Virus record (IMG/VR): IMGVR_UViG_3300005805_003857
Location: 1 to 64,000 of that record
Source of the DNA: a virus
Lineage: Duplodnaviria; Caudoviricetes
Length of the DNA: 64,000 nucleotides
Direction: 5' to 3' (one strand)
Below are positions 8,046-36,555 of this stretch, one piece after another. A model generated the notes under the pieces. That model saw nothing but the letters and a program-made list of their open reading frames with translations. It did not search any database and was not told where the DNA came from. Numbering within the stretch: position 1 is the stretch's first letter; the number at the start of each line of letters is the position of its first letter. Both the position numbers and the translations under genes were made by a program.

Positions 8046-9551
8046 ATGAACTATTTAGGAATATCAACCGGTTTCCATGACTCTGCAATAAGTCTTATAG
8101 ATGATGCTGGCAATATATTATTTGCTGGACATAGTGAACGTTACACTAAACATAAGCATGATAAACATTTAAGTATGGATATAGTAACCGATGCGTTAGC
8201 ATATGCAACCTCACGTAATATTGAAGTTCATTATTATGAACGTCCATTAATGAAATATCTCCGACAGTTATATAGTGGGGAAAAACCCGCATTAGCAAAC
8301 ATATCAACTAAACATATTATTGGTGAAGGTTTATTGTATAAAATATCTGATGGTAGAGGTAGTAAAGTACATACACATAACCATCATTTAAGTCATGCAG
8401 CCGCAGGCTTTCAAACAAGTCCCTACAATGATGCTACTGTAGTTGTTATTGATGCTATCGGAGAGTTTGACACTATTAGTATTTGGAATGCGTATTATGA
8501 TAAGAATGGTATAGCAAAATATAAGAAGTTATGGGGACAACATTATCCACATAGTATAGGATTATTCTATAGTGCTATGACACAACGGGTGGGACTACGC
8601 CCATTAGACGAAGAATATATTTTGATGGGCATGGCAGCTTATGGTAAACATAATCTATCAAAAGAATTAAAAGAAATGTCTGACACATTAGTAAAATCAT
8701 ATAAAGACATTACTTTCAAACATAACTTACACATAGGAGTATCGGACGAATTCATCAAGGACGCTGATGATATGGATATTGCTTGTAGCGCACAACTAAT
8801 TGCCGAACTGTTGATTACATCCGTTATCAGTAAAGCAAGAGCACTCGGTGGTGGTAAGAATCTTGTATATGGTGGTGGCGTAGCATTAAATTGTTTAGCA
8901 AATAGATTATTAGGAAACTTTTATGACAACATTTGGATTATACCTAATCCTGGCGATGCTGGTTCTAGTCTTGGAGCGGCCTGTCTTGGCTATGGTAAAC
9001 GGGTTAATTGGACTAACGCTTTTCTTGGTTATGATATTAGTGGGCCTTATCCTACTAATCGTATACTTGATAGTCTACTCACTGATAAAATTGTGGGAGT
9101 CGCTAACGGACGAGCAGAGTTTGGGCCAAGGGCTTTGGGAAATAGAAGCTTACTTGCAGACCCAAGAGGAACAGAAATTAAGGATAAAGTAAATGAAATC
9201 AAACGAAGACAAAAATTCAGACCTTTTGCGCCAGTCATTCTGGAGGAATATGCTGATACTTATTTTGATATGCCACGTGGTTTCAATAACAGTAGGTATA
9301 TGCAGTCAATCGCTCGTTGTAGGGTTCCTTACTTATTTCCTGCTATCGTTCACCACGACGGCACTAGTCGTGTCCAGACTGTCCCGAAAGATGGAAGTGG
9401 AATACGAGAACTCCTTGAAAAATGGTACGTATTGACCGGTTGTCCAATGTTATTGAACACATCATTGAACATCAGGGGCGAGCCAATGGTAAATGACCGA
9501 AAAGATGCTGACAGGTTCGAATTAATGTATGGAGTGAAAGTTTGCTCCTAA
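8046..9551 (+). CDS. Carbamoyltransferase (NodU/CmcH/TobZ family)
   Basis: FHDSA, HHLSHAA, GGVALNC, GDAG, GRAEFGPRALGNRS, RPFAP, LLNTSLNIRGEP. Confidence 0.95.
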   Translation: MNYLGISTGFHDSAISLIDDAGNILFAGHSERYTKHKHDKHLSMDIVTDALAYATSRNIEVHYYERPLMKYLRQLYSGEKPALANISTKHIIGEGLLYKISDGRGSKVHTHNHHLSHAAAGFQTSPYNDATVVVIDAIGEFDTISIWNAYYDKNGIAKYKKLWGQHYPHSIGLFYSAMTQRVGLRPLDEEYILMGMAAYGKHNLSKELKEMSDTLVKSYKDITFKHNLHIGVSDEFIKDADDMDIACSAQLIAELLITSVISKARALGGGKNLVYGGGVALNCLANRLLGNFYDNIWIIPNPGDAGSSLGAACLGYGKRVNWTNAFLGYDISGPYPTNRILDSLLTDKIVGVANGRAEFGPRALGNRSLLADPRGTEIKDKVNEIKRRQKFRPFAPVILEEYADTYFDMPRGFNNSRYMQSIARCRVPYLFPAIVHHDGTSRVQTVPKDGSGIRELLEKWYVLTGCPMLLNTSLNIRGEPMVNDRKDADRFELMYGVKVCS

Positions 9552-9555
9552 GGCA

Positions 9556-9626
9556 TAAATAAAAGTGTAGTTCGCGGATCTGGACAATCCCAACTACTCT
9601 AATGCTAACAAGGAGCAATCAGCATG
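9556..9626 (+). ncRNA. Conserved structured endonuclease leader, copy 1 (candidate cis-regulatory RNA)
   Basis: TAAATA-aaa-GTGTAGTT-CGC-GGAtctggacaaTCC-C-AACTAC-TCTAATGCT-aa-CAAGGAGCAATCAGC-ATG; near-identical copies at 34799 (+) and 21770 (-). Confidence 0.8.
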
Positions 9627-10259
9627 AGTATTTATCGCAAAATATACGAGCAAAATTTTGGACCTATCCCTAAGGAACCAAATGGACGAACATATGAAAT
9701 TCATCACATAGATGGAAATCATAATAACAATGACCCAACTAACCTCAGTGCAATGACTATACAGGAGCACTATGATATTCATTACTCACAGGGTGATTGG
9801 GGTGCATGTTTCAAAATGGCAAAACGCATGGAAATGGCACCTGAGGTGAAATCAAGGTTAGCTAGCTTGGCATCAAAAAAGAGATTGACAGAAGGTACGC
9901 ACAATTTTCAGGGTGAAAACTTTCATACTAAACACAGTAGTATTAATCAACGAAATAGAGTTTTGTCGGGTAAGCATAATTTTTTAGGAAGTGGCCTACA
10001 AAAATCTAGGGTAGATAACGGAACACATCCTTTTTTAAAACAAAACAGAACAAAATATGATTGGTGTAGTAATCAACGATCTGCATTTGGAATTACACCT
10101 GAGAAAGCTAGAAAGATTCAACAAGACTTAATTCAAGCAGGTACACATACTGGAACAAAGCAATTTGCACAGATACATTCTTGTCCACATTGCGGGAAAG
10201 AAGGAAAGGGTTTGATTATGTTTAGATTCCACTTTGATAATTGTAAATTAATAAAATAA
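9624..10259 (+). CDS. HNH homing endonuclease
   Basis: YEIHHIDGNHNNNDPTNL...EHYDIH HNH core; HNF repeats; C-terminal CPHC...HFDNCK. Confidence 0.85.
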   Translation: MSIYRKIYEQNFGPIPKEPNGRTYEIHHIDGNHNNNDPTNLSAMTIQEHYDIHYSQGDWGACFKMAKRMEMAPEVKSRLASLASKKRLTEGTHNFQGENFHTKHSSINQRNRVLSGKHNFLGSGLQKSRVDNGTHPFLKQNRTKYDWCSNQRSAFGITPEKARKIQQDLIQAGTHTGTKQFAQIHSCPHCGKEGKGLIMFRFHFDNCKLIK

Positions 10260-14549: not shown

Positions 14550-14614
14550 TAAGACTGTATGAAGTAGACAGAAAAGGATTCAAGACCCGGGGGCAGTTCC
14601 CGGCAGGTCCACCA
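14550..14614 (+). ncRNA. ssrA: Two-piece (circularly permuted) tmRNA, acceptor piece
   Basis: GAC-CCGGG-GGCAGTT-CCCGG-CAGGTCC-ACCA is T arm + 3' acceptor strand + CCA; GACTGT and GATTCAA pair with ACAGTC and TTGGGTC of the downstream piece (P2). 5' end approximate. Confidence 0.92.
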
Positions 14615-14626
14615 TAAGGAAGTTTG

Positions 14627-14821
14627 ATGAAAATTTGTGTAAAGACAACAGCCGGTGAAGTTATTCCAATTATCTCTGCTACTAAATTTCAAGATGTGGG
14701 CATTTTAGTTCGCACTGAAAGAGAAGTCAGCCAAGGTAGTTGGATGTTTAAGTTCGTAGGCGGACCAAACGATTTTTACACAATGTTTTGTGATGAACAA
14801 GGTAAAGAAGTTTTCTTATGA
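14627..14821 (+). CDS. 64-aa protein encoded in the tmRNA intervening segment
   Basis: AAGGA SD at 14616-14620, ATG at 14627, TGA 1 nt before the mature 5' G; fills almost the whole 208-nt intervening segment. Confidence 0.65.
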   Translation: MKICVKTTAGEVIPIISATKFQDVGILVRTEREVSQGSWMFKFVGGPNDFYTMFCDEQGKEVFL

Positions 14822-14822
14822 T

Positions 14823-15070
14823 GGGCCTGACATAGATATCGATTGGGTCACAAGTATTGAAATGGACAGTCCGGCAATGTAGAAGCCGTTAGGATTGGGG
14901 GCAAAGTGTAGTCGCTATACCCATAGTATAGAAAGACGCTCTACTCGGTCGAAGACACAAAACCTTTATCTGCAAACGATGAAACATATCTATTGGCTGC
15001 AAACGCCTGATAGCGAAGTAGGTTTTACTTTGTAAAAGAAAAAACCCTTGTAGGAGCTTCGGCTCCTACT
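14823..15070 (+). ncRNA. ssrA: Two-piece tmRNA, coding piece
   Basis: GGGCCTG pairs with CAGGTCC giving G3.U70; D-loop-like ACATAGATATCGA; P2 strand; PK1-like CGGC/GCCG; U(-5)A(-4) before resume codon; tag ORF; 3' terminator. 3' end approximate. Confidence 0.92.
14972..15010 (+). other. tmRNA tag reading frame ANDETYLLAANA*
   Basis: gca aac gat gaa aca tat cta ttg gct gca aac gcc tga; resembles the canonical ANDENYALAA. Confidence 0.9.
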
Positions 15071-20734: not shown

Positions 20735-21036
20735 TGTCACCAGAATTTATTGAAAAATGGGAACACATTCTTGAAGATGTAGAAAAGAATAAGATACCTG
20801 TACAATTTATTAAGAAGTTAATTATTAAACTTCGGGGTAAAAAGCAACAGACTATCAATATCGCAAAATTCTTAGAACAAGGATTGGACCCAGATGAAAT
20901 TGAAAACGCCGTTAGTCGCAAACTAGATGAACTAGATGATATGATAGTGAGTGTAGAATTTGTTCTCAATGTTCAAAGTATTGCTGACACCGTACAGCCA
21001 ACGACAGATGATTTATTAAAAAACTTACTTAGTTGA
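20734..21036 (+). CDS. Hypothetical protein
   Basis: TAATG-coupled ORF. Confidence 0.7.
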   Translation: MSPEFIEKWEHILEDVEKNKIPVQFIKKLIIKLRGKKQQTINIAKFLEQGLDPDEIENAVSRKLDELDDMIVSVEFVLNVQSIADTVQPTTDDLLKNLLS

Positions 21037-21705
21037 ATGAATTTTCCAACCACACACTGTTTTTCGTTTACCATTCGCAACATTACATACATTACCGTGT
21101 GTCGTGTTGAATTTTATTCTGAATTCTTGTTTAGTTAATTGAATTAACTCACCCGTAGTAATATTCTCCCAAACATATTTGGTATGATTATAATTCTGGT
21201 GAGTTATTCCTTTTTTCTTTGGAATGTAGCCTAGTTTTCGTTGATAATTATTATCACCTGATAATTTCTCTACCGCTTCGGGTTTCTTGCTATTATTGTT
21301 AATCCCGGATAATTTCCAAATATATCCCGATTTCTTGGAATAATGATTTTCACCTGAAATCTTCTTTTTTATTTCAGGATCCTTCATTGGATTATTTCCA
21401 TGCAGGTCAACAAACCCACCGTCACCTTCTTCGGGTTTTAGGTTGGCCCATATTTTATTTCCTAGATTATCTACAGCATTGACTATATCCCATAAGTCAC
21501 TGTAGTATTTCCCCCAATGTTTAATTTCTTGATTGGATTGACATTCTTTTAATATCTCCGTTTCATGCGCTTTTCCATGCACCACCAAATGCCTTTTCCA
21601 ATATACTCCTGATCCGGGATAAATCAACGGGTTTCTTTTTGTCTTACCTAAGTATTTTAGGCCAGTTATTCTATGCGTCTTAACATAGAGGTAATAAATA
21701 GTTAT
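21025..21705 (-). CDS. GIY-YIG (Seg-like) homing endonuclease with ATA at the expected start
   Basis: Reading upstream of the ORF-track TTG gives (I)TIYYLYVKTHRITGLKYLGKT...YPGSGVYW, a complete GIY-YIG N-terminus; ATA at 21705-21703 sits where leader copy 1 has its ATG. Confidence 0.8.
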   Translation of the reverse strand: MTIYYLYVKTHRITGLKYLGKTKRNPLIYPGSGVYWKRHLVVHGKAHETEILKECQSNQEIKHWGKYYSDLWDIVNAVDNLGNKIWANLKPEEGDGGFVDLHGNNPMKDPEIKKKISGENHYSKKSGYIWKLSGINNNSKKPEAVEKLSGDNNYQRKLGYIPKKKGITHQNYNHTKYVWENITTGELIQLTKQEFRIKFNTTHGNVCNVANGKRKTVCGWKIHSTK

Positions 21706-21770
21706 GCTGATTGCTCCTTGCTAGCATTAGGGTAGTTGGGCCTGCCAGCCGCGAGGTACACTTTTATTTA
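21703..21770 (-). ncRNA. Conserved structured endonuclease leader, copy 3
   Basis: Reverse complement: TAAATA-aaa-GTGTAccT-CGC-GGCtggcagGCC-C-AACTAC-cCTAATGCT-ag-CAAGGAGCAATCAGC-ATA. Confidence 0.8.
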
Positions 21771-21781
21771 GTCCGTTTTAT

Positions 21782-21816: not shown

Positions 21817-22716
21817 ATGGAACAATATCACAATTTACTACAAGACATATTAGACAACGGAGAAGAAAAGGGAGATAGGACAGGAGTCGGCACATTATCT
21901 GTTTTTGCTAGACAACTTAGATTTGACTTGAGAAGAGGGTTTCCGGCAGTAACTACCAAAAAGTTGGCTTGGAGAGCAGTAGTAGGGGAGTTGTTGTGGT
22001 TTTTAGAAGGGTCATCCTCTGAGAGGCGTCTAGCAGAACTCACCCATGGTACTACCGAAGGCAAGGTTACTATCTGGACACCGAATGCGCTTGCGCCGTA
22101 TTGGAAACCAAAAGCGAAATTCGAAGGTGACTTGGGCAGGGTCTACGGCGTACAATGGCGTCACTGGAACAAAGACACGGTTGAAAAAGACATGGGTCCG
22201 GCGCATAAAGGTGGCACACGCCTCGCAGTTGACCGCACAGAAGTAGACCAACTCTCAAACTTACTTGAGGGTTTGATTAAAGATCCCAATGGTCGTAGAC
22301 ATATTATGAGTGCATGGAACGTCGGTGAACTCGATCAAATGGCACTACCTCCTTGTCATGTTATGAGTCAATTCTATGTCAATAAAAATAAAGAACTATC
22401 TTGTCATATGTACCAGCGTAGCGTGGATGTGTTTCTTGGTTTACCTTTTAACATTAGTAGCTATGCGTTACTCACACATTTGATTGCACATCACTGTGGA
22501 TTGAAAGTTGGTGAATTGATTATTTCTACGGGTGATACTCACATCTACAAAGATCATATTGAACAAGTAAAAGAACAATTGTCACGTACCGAATACCCAG
22601 CACCAACACTGATGTTGAACTCACAAAAGAACAACATCTTTGAAATGACAATGCAAGACATTCACTTAGAAAACTATGAGAGTCATGGACAAATCAAAGC
22701 GAATATGGCCGTCTGA
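21817..22716 (+). CDS. thyA: Thymidylate synthase
   Basis: DRTGVGT, GRVYGVQW, ALPPCH, YQRSVDVFLGLPFN (dUMP-specific Asn), GDTHIY. Confidence 0.97.
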   Translation: MEQYHNLLQDILDNGEEKGDRTGVGTLSVFARQLRFDLRRGFPAVTTKKLAWRAVVGELLWFLEGSSSERRLAELTHGTTEGKVTIWTPNALAPYWKPKAKFEGDLGRVYGVQWRHWNKDTVEKDMGPAHKGGTRLAVDRTEVDQLSNLLEGLIKDPNGRRHIMSAWNVGELDQMALPPCHVMSQFYVNKNKELSCHMYQRSVDVFLGLPFNISSYALLTHLIAHHCGLKVGELIISTGDTHIYKDHIEQVKEQLSRTEYPAPTLMLNSQKNNIFEMTMQDIHLENYESHGQIKANMAV

Positions 22717-34780: not shown

Positions 34781-34798
34781 TCCCATATTCAACCAGCA

Positions 34799-34869
34799 TA
34801 AATAGTAGTGTAGTTCGCGGAGGTCGAAATCCCAACTACTCTAATGCTTTCAAGGAGCAATCAGCAATG
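34799..34869 (+). ncRNA. Conserved structured endonuclease leader, copy 2
   Basis: TAAATA-gta-GTGTAGTT-CGC-GGAggtcgaaaTCC-C-AACTAC-TCTAATGCT-tt-CAAGGAGCAATCAGC-aATG. Confidence 0.8.
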
Positions 34870-35439
34870 ATATTTAGTAGAAAAAATCCCCCGCCAGGAT
34901 TTTATGTATATGCTTATCTCAGAGAAGACGGTACCCCTTACTATATAGGGAAAGGTAAAGATATTAGAGCCTGGCACACTACTCACGGAGTCAACCTACC
35001 TAAAGATAAGTCAAGAATTTTAGTAATCTCATATGGATTACTAGAACTATGGGCATTCGCATTAGAGCGAAGAATGATAAAATGGTATGGCAGAAAAGAC
35101 AACAATACCGGCATACTAAGAAATAAAACAGATGGCGGCGAAGGTAGTTTGGGTACTGTAATAAATCCAATTGCTATTGCCAAACAAAAAGAAACTAAAC
35201 GAATCAACAAATCTAATTCTAACACCCCTGCTTCAATCTTGAAGCGAGTTAAAGCTAAGAAGGTCAATGGCACACTCAACAGCGATCCTGCAATTAAAGA
35301 AAAAATAAGGGCTACTAGATTAGCAAATGGATCAAATGCAAATACTCCTGAGTCTATTGCCAAACGAGTAGCAACAAGACGGGCAAATAAATTAGCAAAA
35401 GGGCTATCAAATAAATCAATTTTACCTAAACAGGCATAA
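34867..35439 (+). CDS. GIY-YIG homing endonuclease
   Basis: [19 protein letters not shown]...R...E...I..YGRK...G.L.N; C-terminal NTPES.IAKR repeats. Confidence 0.85.
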
Positions 35440-35553: not shown

Positions 35554-36555
35554 ATGGCCAGCTTAAGCGAAATCCGTGCACGAATTGCTGCACAAGAAAA
35601 CAAATCTCAAAACAAAAACTCTGCATCCCAAGGTGATGGTGCTACCTATCCGCATTGGAACATGGACGAAGGCACTACTGCTAGTATTCGTTTCTTGCCC
35701 GATGGTAACTCAAAGAACGATTTCTTCTGGGTTGAAAAACAAATTATCAAACTTCCATTCAATGGCGTTAAGGGTGATCCTAACGTTAAGCGTATTGAAG
35801 TACAAGTACCATGCGTAGAAATGTATGGTGATAACTGTCCTATCTTGGCAGAAGTTCGTCCTTGGTATAAAGACGAATCATTGAAAGAAATGGCAAACAA
35901 GTATTGGAAGAAGCGTAGTTATCTATTTCAAGGTTTTGTTCGTCAGAACCCATTAGGCGATGACAAGACACCTGCGAACCCTATTCGTAGATTCATCATC
36001 AGCCCACAAATCATTCCAATCGTTAAAGCTGGATTGATGGATCCAGAGATTGAAGAATTGCCAACAGACTTCTTGCGTGGTCTTGATTTCAACATTAAGA
36101 AAACAAGCAAGGGTGGTTACGCAGATTACTCAACAAGTAACTGGGCACGTAAAGAATCTCCTCTCACTGAAGCAGAACAGGCCGCTGTCGAAGCACATGG
36201 TTTGTTTAACTTAGCTGACTTCTTGCCTAAGAAGCCCGGCGAAGCAGAATTGCGTATCATCAAGGAAATGTTTGAAGCATCAGTTGATGGTCAACCGTTC
36301 GACAACGAACGTTGGGGCGCATACTATCGTCCTTGGGGACTAGAAGCACCAGCAGGTGCGACAGCGGAAAAACAATCAGCGCCAGCATCGGAAGCAAGCG
36401 CACCCGCAACAGCACCCGTAGCAGAAACTTCTACAGCACCTTGGGATGATGAAGCATCTACAACAGCATCGGCTCCGATTGAAGTTCCAAAAGCAACTTC
36501 AACGGATAAGGCACAGGACATCCTAGCGATGATTCGTGCTAGACAAACTAAGTAA
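35554..36555 (+). CDS. Single-stranded DNA-binding protein (T4 gp32-like)
   Basis: IRFLPD, CPILAE, YWKKRSY, KGGYADYSTS, acidic/Ala-rich tail, ILAMIRAR end. Confidence 0.85.
   Translation: MASLSEIRARIAAQENKSQNKNSASQGDGATYPHWNMDEGTTASIRFLPDGNSKNDFFWVEKQIIKLPFNGVKGDPNVKRIEVQVPCVEMYGDNCPILAEVRPWYKDESLKEMANKYWKKRSYLFQGFVRQNPLGDDKTPANPIRRFIISPQIIPIVKAGLMDPEIEELPTDFLRGLDFNIKKTSKGGYADYSTSNWARKESPLTEAEQAAVEAHGLFNLADFLPKKPGEAELRIIKEMFEASVDGQPFDNERWGAYYRPWGLEAPAGATAEKQSAPASEASAPATAPVAETSTAPWDDEASTTASAPIEVPKATSTDKAQDILAMIRARQTK

Follow-up and report, generated by a model that had tools for sequence, protein, structure and literature searches.

Why should three dissimilar homing endonuclease genes, scattered over one viral genome, all begin behind the same short structured stretch of DNA? 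This is the question raised by positions 9556-9626 of a 64,000-nucleotide sequence from an uncultured phage (positions 1 to 64,000 of the IMG/VR record IMGVR_UViG_3300005805_003857, hereafter “the window”), and by two further copies of that stretch within it. Gene-specific hairpins and autorepression are the known means by which homing endonucleases are restrained; here a single element is shared among different genes. A first, sequence-only reading took it for a leader working in the late mRNA. The analysis described here leads instead to the other strand: the element is a cassette of about 88 bp which probably encodes a cis-antisense small RNA (sRNA) of about 68 nucleotides, made from an inverted late promoter and restraining the nucleases.

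The three copies were confirmed at 9556-9626 (plus strand, copy 1), 21770-21703 (minus strand, copy 2) and 34799-34869 (plus strand, copy 3), and the layout given to them by the first reading was borne out by their coordinates, by a core pattern and by a covariance model. Aligned with one another, they show a mean identity of 79% over 130 nt, with unrelated flanks. The 23-base core pattern matches the window three times against 0.00 expected from shuffles, while the covariance model gives 100.3 bits for copy 1, 87.5 for copy 3, 77.9 for copy 2 and at most 14.4 for the rest of the window. Read along the gene strand, the window copies consist of a TAAATA box, GTG, an outer helix, a CRC bulge, a variable inner hairpin, a C and AACTAC, followed by CTAATGCT-nn-AAGGAGCA..CAGC and the start. 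When all the copies are parsed, the common layout has (G)ATAAATA separated by 5 nt from a G, after which come an outer helix of 6 bp, C-R-C, the inner hairpin and Y; the outer helix is completed by its 3′ strand, and then UCUA, AUGCU, a loop with AAGG at its end, AGCA(A)U and CAGC lead to the start codon and TATTTAT(C/T). The conserved region therefore passes the start codon and reaches a TATTTAT(C) box which the first reading did not mention; beyond the two A/T boxes conservation ends sharply. Both a disrupted outer helix and an ATA in place of the ATG are found in the minus-strand copy, 21770-21703. The parts of each copy are listed below, the hairpins being numbered along the predicted antisense RNA.

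Copy 1:
9554-9561, plus strand, putative sense T4-type late-promoter box CATAAATA, recognised by sequence
9562-9566, A-rich spacer, which together with the reverse complement of the sense box makes up the U-rich antisense tail
9567-9597, minus strand, antisense hairpin 2 (from covariation and folding), corresponding to the outer helix and inner hairpin of the first reading
9599-9622, minus strand, antisense hairpin 1, with an 8-bp stem in which CUGAU(U)GCU pairs with AGCAUUAG
9556-9623, minus strand, predicted antisense sRNA of about 68 nt, placed by the box-to-G spacing, the fold and the tail
9629-9636, minus strand, putative inverted late-promoter box, reading GATAAATA on the minus strand and lying inside codons 2-4 of the HNH gene
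9624-10259, plus strand, HNH_3 homing endonuclease, 211 aa

Copy 2:
21694-21772, minus strand, cassette, 77.9 bits with the covariance model
21772-21765, minus strand, sense box ACTAAATA
21759-21732, hairpin 2, with two mismatches in the outer helix
21730-21707, hairpin 1
21709-21706, CAGC; at 21705-21703, ATA replaces ATG
21700-21694, inverted box TATTTAT
21706 to about 21770, plus strand, predicted antisense RNA
21025-21705, minus strand, seg-like GIY-YIG endonuclease frame, 226 codons from the ATA

Copy 3:
34797-34877, plus strand, cassette, 87.5 bits with the covariance model
34797-34804, plus strand, sense box CATAAATA
34810-34839, hairpin 2
34841-34864, hairpin 1
34862-34865, CAGC; ATG at 34867
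34871-34877, inverted box TATTTAG
34865 down to about 34799, minus strand, predicted antisense RNA
34867-35439, plus strand, GIY-YIG-like endonuclease, 190 aa

In copy 1, hairpin 2 is made of 6 bp, a bulged G, 1 bp, a second bulged G and 4-5 bp, a stem of terminator-like appearance, and on the sense strand the same region is the predicted 5′-terminal hairpin of the late mRNA. The loop of hairpin 1, CCUUGUU, is complementary to the AAGG of the Shine-Dalgarno (SD) sequence. The predicted antisense RNA would start near 9623 and finish within the U-tract, at about 9556-9562.

The phage carrying these copies is a jumbo phage of the T4 superfamily, its large terminase sharing 50.6% identity with the one of Sinorhizobium phage Phosso and 48.3% with the one of Pseudomonas phage PA5oct. 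It also has a permuted (two-piece) tmRNA gene (window 14553-15010, plus strand; Rfam RF04321, 77.8 bits, E 3.4e-13), and such a phage-borne gene hints at an alphaproteobacterial-type host. The endonuclease genes of copies 2 and 3 adjoin core genes of DNA metabolism: the former is divergent from a thymidylate synthase gene (21817-22716), and the latter stands directly upstream of a gp32-like SSB gene (35554-36555), the position that segG holds before gene 32 in T4.

How widespread is the element? A fourth copy, more divergent than the others, is found further along the contig, beyond the window (71953-72048, minus strand, the same as L147:8053-8148, minus strand; 61.7 bits with the covariance model). 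An insertion of about 37 nt with a small hairpin of its own separates its sense late box from the long hairpin, and with the sense box displaced in this way it still keeps both a U-rich antisense tail beside the hairpin and the inverted box. Of two pattern scans of IMG/VR, one gave 43 loci and the next at least 120 stretches, and searches with the covariance model and HMMs brought the collection to 172 cassette instances, 120 of them distinct, in 143 viral loci, the unit of about 88 bp being known from more than 140 uncultured viral contigs. The larger contigs carry one to four copies each. Sixteen copies match neither search pattern and are thus unbiased with respect to the motifs fixed in those patterns. 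There is also a ghost element (L082:10985-11066), a left half in which the sense box, the long hairpin and CTCTAATGCT are kept before the sequence breaks off, without SD, inverted box or endonuclease. In a subset of copies (e.g., L006, L009, L019, L026, L028, L083, L099), TGTCAA(C/T/G) stands 8-12 nt upstream of the sense box; its TGTCAA, the complement of TTGACA, is part of a recurrent motif preceding the cassette. Megablast and blastn found no cassette in cultured phages, and the covariance model rejects as chance the two pattern matches that turned up among 185,579 prokaryotic species genomes. The first reading's suggestion of an undescribed cassette holds up against Rfam: scanned at gathering scores with Rfam 15, the whole window yields the permuted tmRNA as sole match and nothing at the cassette, and a scan of 9530-9660 on both strands at E<=10 returns only noise of 8-15 bits. 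Among the families without a match to the cassette are RNA-OUT, sar, Sok, CopA, C4 and HEARO.

What the cassette is attached to is uniform in kind and diverse in sequence. Behind it are 99 distinct ORFs, complete and no shorter than 100 aa, all of them endonucleases when intact, with Pfam and PHROG labels that overwhelmingly name homing endonucleases (HNH_3 in 17, HNH in 12, GIY-YIG in 7, SegE_GIY-YIG in 4 and NUMOD3 in 26; two PHROG “homing endonuclease” families match 58 and 33 of the 99). Compared over their N-terminal 95 residues, these proteins fall into at least 10 unrelated clusters, among which 30 are HNH-type, 28 seg-like, 25 of a second GIY-YIG type and 10 of a third type, with others besides. 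The window mirrors this, as the first reading had seen from the dissimilarity of the three proteins: the product of copy 1 is HNH_3; that of copy 2 is seg-like, being 39.5% identical to a paralogue that matches a PHROG “homing endonuclease” family; and that of copy 3 is GIY-YIG-like, its cluster profile, which has the Y/Y/G/R/E/N residues expected to be invariant, giving a weak match to GIY-YIG structures (E 0.0016). Single-sequence PDB searches with the copy 2 and copy 3 proteins gave no match. With 99 distinct ORFs in at least 10 N-terminal classes, the claim that the leader, not the ORF, is what is conserved proves correct: the cassette of about 88 bp is the conserved unit and the nuclease is interchangeable.

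Across the 120 distinct copies in 143 loci, L047 and L086 being set aside, what comes next is always an HNH or GIY-YIG endonuclease or a decayed one, the short ORFs behind intact cassettes being endonucleases broken by nonsense mutations, frameshifts and internal deletions. Intact cassettes stand before endonuclease pseudogenes at L070, L060, L078, L119, L130, L015 and L016/L155:511-804; either the RNA element outlives its nuclease or the decay of the nuclease is recent. L016 was the best candidate for a “solo” cassette without endonuclease, but a frameshifted remnant lies behind it. At a few loci, ATA occupies the start-codon position before intact endonuclease frames (21703-21705, minus strand; L147:8065-8067, minus strand, at about 71965 of the contig; L013; L035), and these ATA-headed frames have 226, 210 and 273 codons. 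The two on the window's contig are paralogues only 39.5% identical, so that the ATA start is either old and tolerated, through weak AUA initiation, or has arisen repeatedly. Copy 2 may be decaying, though its frame of 226 codons is intact.

On which strand, then, does the structure form? Alignment of the copies agrees with the first reading that the outer helix and the inner hairpin covary. Counted on the sense strand, the cells of the outer helix are 671 Watson-Crick and 19 A.C, with G.U and all other combinations absent, and the pair between the two bulged Cs has 98 Watson-Crick, 17 A.C and again no G.U. These A.C cells occur at differing positions in differing lineages, and on the opposite strand they read G.U. 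Since every non-Watson-Crick cell is an A.C on the sense strand and hence a G.U on the other, the fold is assigned to the antisense strand: the helices are selected on the strand opposite the endonuclease gene. The 99 distinct copies were re-aligned in the antisense orientation with the mirrored structure and with the SD helix extended to 8 bp. Pairing is found in 98.5% of the 1881 cells of this alignment, and two-sided changes in 14 of its 19 pairs (205 cells), a level which none of 500 shuffles reaches and below which slid controls remain by far. For identical pairs, the antisense reading is 98.5% paired with 184 G.U, against 89.4% and 13 G.U for the sense reading. Hairpin 1 contains one invariant G.U (99/99) and a second in 26/99, both of which are A.C in the mRNA; the SD helix reaches only 3-5 bp on the sense strand, where conserved A.C mismatches break its extension. 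Given the alignment alone, RNAalifold returns the identical two-hairpin structure de novo.

Folding energies point the same way. The same nucleotides fold at -16.7 kcal/mol as antisense and at -13.1 kcal/mol as sense, the antisense strand being the more stable in 100/114 copies (Wilcoxon p = 6e-18), and its minimum free energy (MFE) structure is the two-hairpin form in 111/114. For copy 1 the antisense RNA has -17.6 kcal/mol (z -2.31) and the sense leader -12.5 (z -0.61); by their z-scores, sense-strand folds are no better than shuffles. Copy 2 takes the canonical fold on neither strand.

The covariation also settles the partner of TGCT. The first reading was right to pair (A)TGCT with an AGCA, but the partner is the SD-proximal one and not that at the start codon. 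Changes in TGCT are always compensated in the AGCA just after the SD's GG (TGTT/AACA, TGTC/GACA, TGCC/GGCA, TACT/AGTA, TGATT/AATCA, TAATT/AATTA), while the AGCA at the start codon never changes; with covariation confined to the former, pairing with the latter is ruled out. CAGC pairs with CUAA through G.U on the antisense strand only, a pairing that accounts for the strong conservation of CTCTAATG and CAGC. A pseudoknot between CAGC and the loop of the inner hairpin (CUGG/UUGG) was rejected by inspection, many loops having no complement, and a tRNA-like or T-loop interpretation of the long hairpin was dropped for the unconserved sequences of its loop.

If an RNA is folded on this strand, its promoter has to lie to the right of CAGC, where nothing but the inverted box, an exact reverse complement of the sense box, is conserved. 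The inverted box is present in 114/114 parsed copies and lies 5 nt from CAGC in 106/114, the same distance that separates the sense box from the conserved G in 109/114. The box occurs in all three reading frames (89, 15 and 10 copies), and it is the ATG that shifts its place in the 5-nt spacer, not the box; being kept in all frames, it is a nucleic-acid signal and not a protein motif. The box matches TATAAATA, the core of the T4 late promoter (see also PMC2988022). By analogy, the TAAATA boxes are presumed to be T4-type late promoters, given the distribution of the motif and the gp55-like genes of related contigs. A gp55-like late sigma factor is encoded by 3/5 of the larger cassette-carrying contigs examined; no gp55 homologue was found on the window's own contig, an 88-kb fragment that is 21% complete and so uninformative in this respect. 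ATAAATA occurs 19 times on the gene strand (plus) of the window, 11 of them in the intergenic DNA that makes up 5.6% of it, and only four times on the minus strand, the inverted box of copy 1 included. This bias suggests selection against stray antisense late promoters. A sigma-70-like site was not found at the cassette.

At the other end, 5-7 of the 10 nt after hairpin 2, whose mean dG is -9.9 kcal/mol, are U. The antisense tail reads ACUUUUAUUUAU or close variants, a U-tract interrupted by A, and is the complement of the sense box and the A-rich spacer; like the inverted box, this U-rich tail went unmentioned in the first reading. A simple terminator scan passes over hairpin 2 on account of the bulges in its stem and the scarcity of G-C pairs towards the outside.

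From this structure, its strand, the boxes and their spacing, the tail and the association with endonucleases, we infer that the RNA is produced and that it represses, stabilisation or processing being other conceivable effects. The cassette would be a portable unit of about 88 bp for expressing free-standing homing endonuclease genes in uncultured jumbo phages of the T4 superfamily, and two convergent T4-type late boxes, (G)ATAAATA ... TATTTAT(C), mark its limits. The left box would drive the endonuclease mRNA, with a 5′UTR of about 57 nt whose first base is that of the long hairpin. From the right box, in codons 2-4, would come the antisense RNA of about 68 nt, starting at the complement of CAGC, a single base ahead of the start codon. 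That RNA would begin almost flush with hairpin 1, a conserved 8-bp stem with two G.U pairs whose CCUU loop faces the AAGG of the SD; a single linker A would lead to hairpin 2, where the covarying bulged stem of 11-12 bp followed by ACUUUUAUUUAU would act as an intrinsic terminator. Complementary to the entire late 5′UTR, SD included, up to position -1, the antisense RNA could form a duplex of about 57 bp which would block ribosome binding, mark the mRNA for cleavage, or both, and convergent transcription over 68 bp would add interference. The net effect would be a low output of nuclease late in infection. The portable expression cassette proposed by the first reading is thereby retained, and taming toxic nucleases is likely its purpose, but through an antisense RNA.

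Could one such RNA reach beyond its own gene? The SD-proximal half is nearly identical among the copies of one genome, and in 3/4 copies on the window's contig the antisense RNA begins with the same 14 nt, which makes action in trans on the other endonuclease mRNAs plausible, a form of multicopy inhibition. That the RNA should be a genome-wide governor of a phage's homing endonucleases, acting in trans and also silencing the endonucleases of co-infecting relatives, is a bolder idea that we hold to be unlikely; its second half draws on the SD-covering half being almost invariant across many phages. If true, it would make the RNA a device of immunity or conflict between selfish elements and between phages, and the inverted promoter pair a unit letting any nuclease gene plug into the control. 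The box also leaves its mark on the proteins, the N-terminus being fixed as M-x-I-Y by its position in codons 2-4. The ATT TAT codons for the I-Y of the N-terminal GIY motif are the complement of ATAAAT, and a GIY-YIG gene could have seeded the inverted promoter, the HNH genes that adopted the cassette having inherited the M-x-I-Y start.

Other explanations have to be weighed against an antisense RNA. That of the first reading, in which the leader works in the late mRNA as a riboregulator switched by a protein or a ligand, as a stabilising 5′ hairpin or as an RNA cofactor of the nuclease, has in its favour that the predicted sense transcript begins exactly at the first base of the long hairpin, that this hairpin and the short SD-adjacent helix are still 89% paired on the sense strand, and that a flush 5′ hairpin could protect the mRNA. 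The sense late promoter does lie upstream of the structure, as claimed. Action of the fold in the late mRNA finds no support in the helices, which are selected on the opposite strand: 36/36 non-Watson-Crick cells of the outer helix and bulge pair are A.C and none G.U, the extended SD helix would be broken by two A.C, one of them invariant and the other frequent, and the sense fold is the weaker in 100/114 copies with z-scores that are not significant. As the nuclease families differ, a common role as protein cofactor is implausible too. We therefore consider a sense riboregulator improbable, and the switch or cofactor of the first reading is not supported.

A different use of the second box would follow a mechanism established in T4 (PMC2988022). 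In transcripts reading through from upstream genes, TATTTAT could pair with the AUAAAUA of the promoter and close off the SD and start codon, while late transcripts, which lack the 5′ strand, would be translated; I-TevI, segB, mobE, e and soc are examples. In favour of this, the helix between promoter and TATTTAT appears in the MFE structures of the read-through RNAs of copies 1 and 3 (2/3), and G before TAAATA accompanies C after TATTTA in 4/5 cases. Yet the helix consists of 7 A-U pairs only, lacks decisive covariation and gives fold z-scores of -0.8 to -1.7, and C-type promoters are compensated in 0/12; nor does a closing helix need the exact 5-nt distance to CAGC seen in 106/114 copies, and the selection of the inner helices on the antisense strand is left unexplained. 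Such silencing, which could coexist with the antisense RNA, has in our view a small chance of being correct. Smaller still is that of a module acting as DNA, either a recombination or mobility sequence like the PeSLs or hairpins forming in single-stranded bottom-strand DNA, which we regard as very improbable. The unit is indeed repeated within and between genomes, it is joined, with sharp boundaries, to ORFs that are unrelated, some of its copies are ghosts or decayed, and PeSLs are composite repeats of promoter and stem-loop that mediate shuffling (PMC2839356, PMC4122927). Recombination homology, however, yields neither compensatory changes nor an asymmetry of G.U and A.C between strands; the promoter- and terminator-like signals are ordered as for an RNA, and the cassette is confined to endonuclease genes instead of serving diverse ORFs.

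If the antisense RNA is real, it would represent a new general way of taming selfish nucleases, with one portable cassette, common to unrelated HNH and GIY-YIG genes in hundreds of uncultured jumbo phages, bringing its own antisense repressor, and would add an abundant family of structured sRNAs to phage RNA biology. The design is compact, the sense promoter doubling as the terminator tail of the antisense RNA and the inverted one as codons 2-4, and it is easily testable, as a synonymous mutation of the box could separate RNA from protein. A broader lesson is that covarying “5′ leaders” can belong to the opposite strand, the asymmetry of G.U and A.C being diagnostic.

How does the cassette compare with known systems? 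PeSLs are early promoters with a stem-loop which flank many kinds of ORF in hyperplastic regions and are explained by recombination (PMC2839356, PMC4122927). The cassette resembles them as a short scattered repeat of promoter and stem-loop at the junctions of shuffled genes, and differs in its late-type boxes arranged in inverted pairs, in its RNA-type covariation and in being found with endonuclease genes only. With late-type boxes, no sigma-70-like site and endonucleases as its only ORFs, it is not a PeSL. Another comparison is CfrI of cyanophage S-PM2, an antisense RNA of about 225 nt that links an endonuclease gene to psbA and represents a single locus with no known function (Millard et al. 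2010, cited in PMC2984593). Like CfrI, the cassette RNA would be antisense over a homing endonuclease gene in a T4-like phage; unlike it, it is predicted to be about 68 nt long, to cover the 5′UTR only and to be repeated as a cassette. CfrI is the single precedent for an antisense RNA over a phage homing endonuclease. Hairpins that sequester the ribosome-binding site (RBS) and contain an internal late promoter have been described for I-TevI, I-TevII, I-TevIII, segB and Aeh1 mobE (PMC2988022). They share with the cassette a late promoter just upstream of the endonuclease gene, RNA structure at the SD and the apparent purpose of limiting nuclease translation. These T4-family hairpins, however, are sense structures, escaped by late transcripts and of gene-specific sequence, whereas the cassette has an antisense fold belonging to one shared family, a sense promoter outside the fold and a second, inverted promoter.

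Close parallels are found among the cis-encoded antisense sRNAs, the kind to which the cassette would belong on its sequence features, the structure lying on the opposite strand and an antisense promoter box being present. In IS10 RNA-OUT/RNA-IN and P22 sar/ant, a gene for a potentially harmful or selfish protein has at its 5′ end convergent promoters separated by a few tens of bp, and RNA-OUT and sar are structured antisense RNAs of about 70 nt, ended by a terminator and complementary to the ribosome-binding region. The cassette likewise has convergent promoters and a predicted antisense RNA over the SD, with action in trans possible among copies. The targets differ, a homing endonuclease here and a transposase or an antirepressor there. 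Both of its promoters are T4-type late boxes, the antisense one inside codons 2-4, and its antisense tail is the complement of the sense promoter. It has no similarity to RNA-OUT or sar in sequence or model, and one and the same family serves at least 10 unrelated classes of nuclease.
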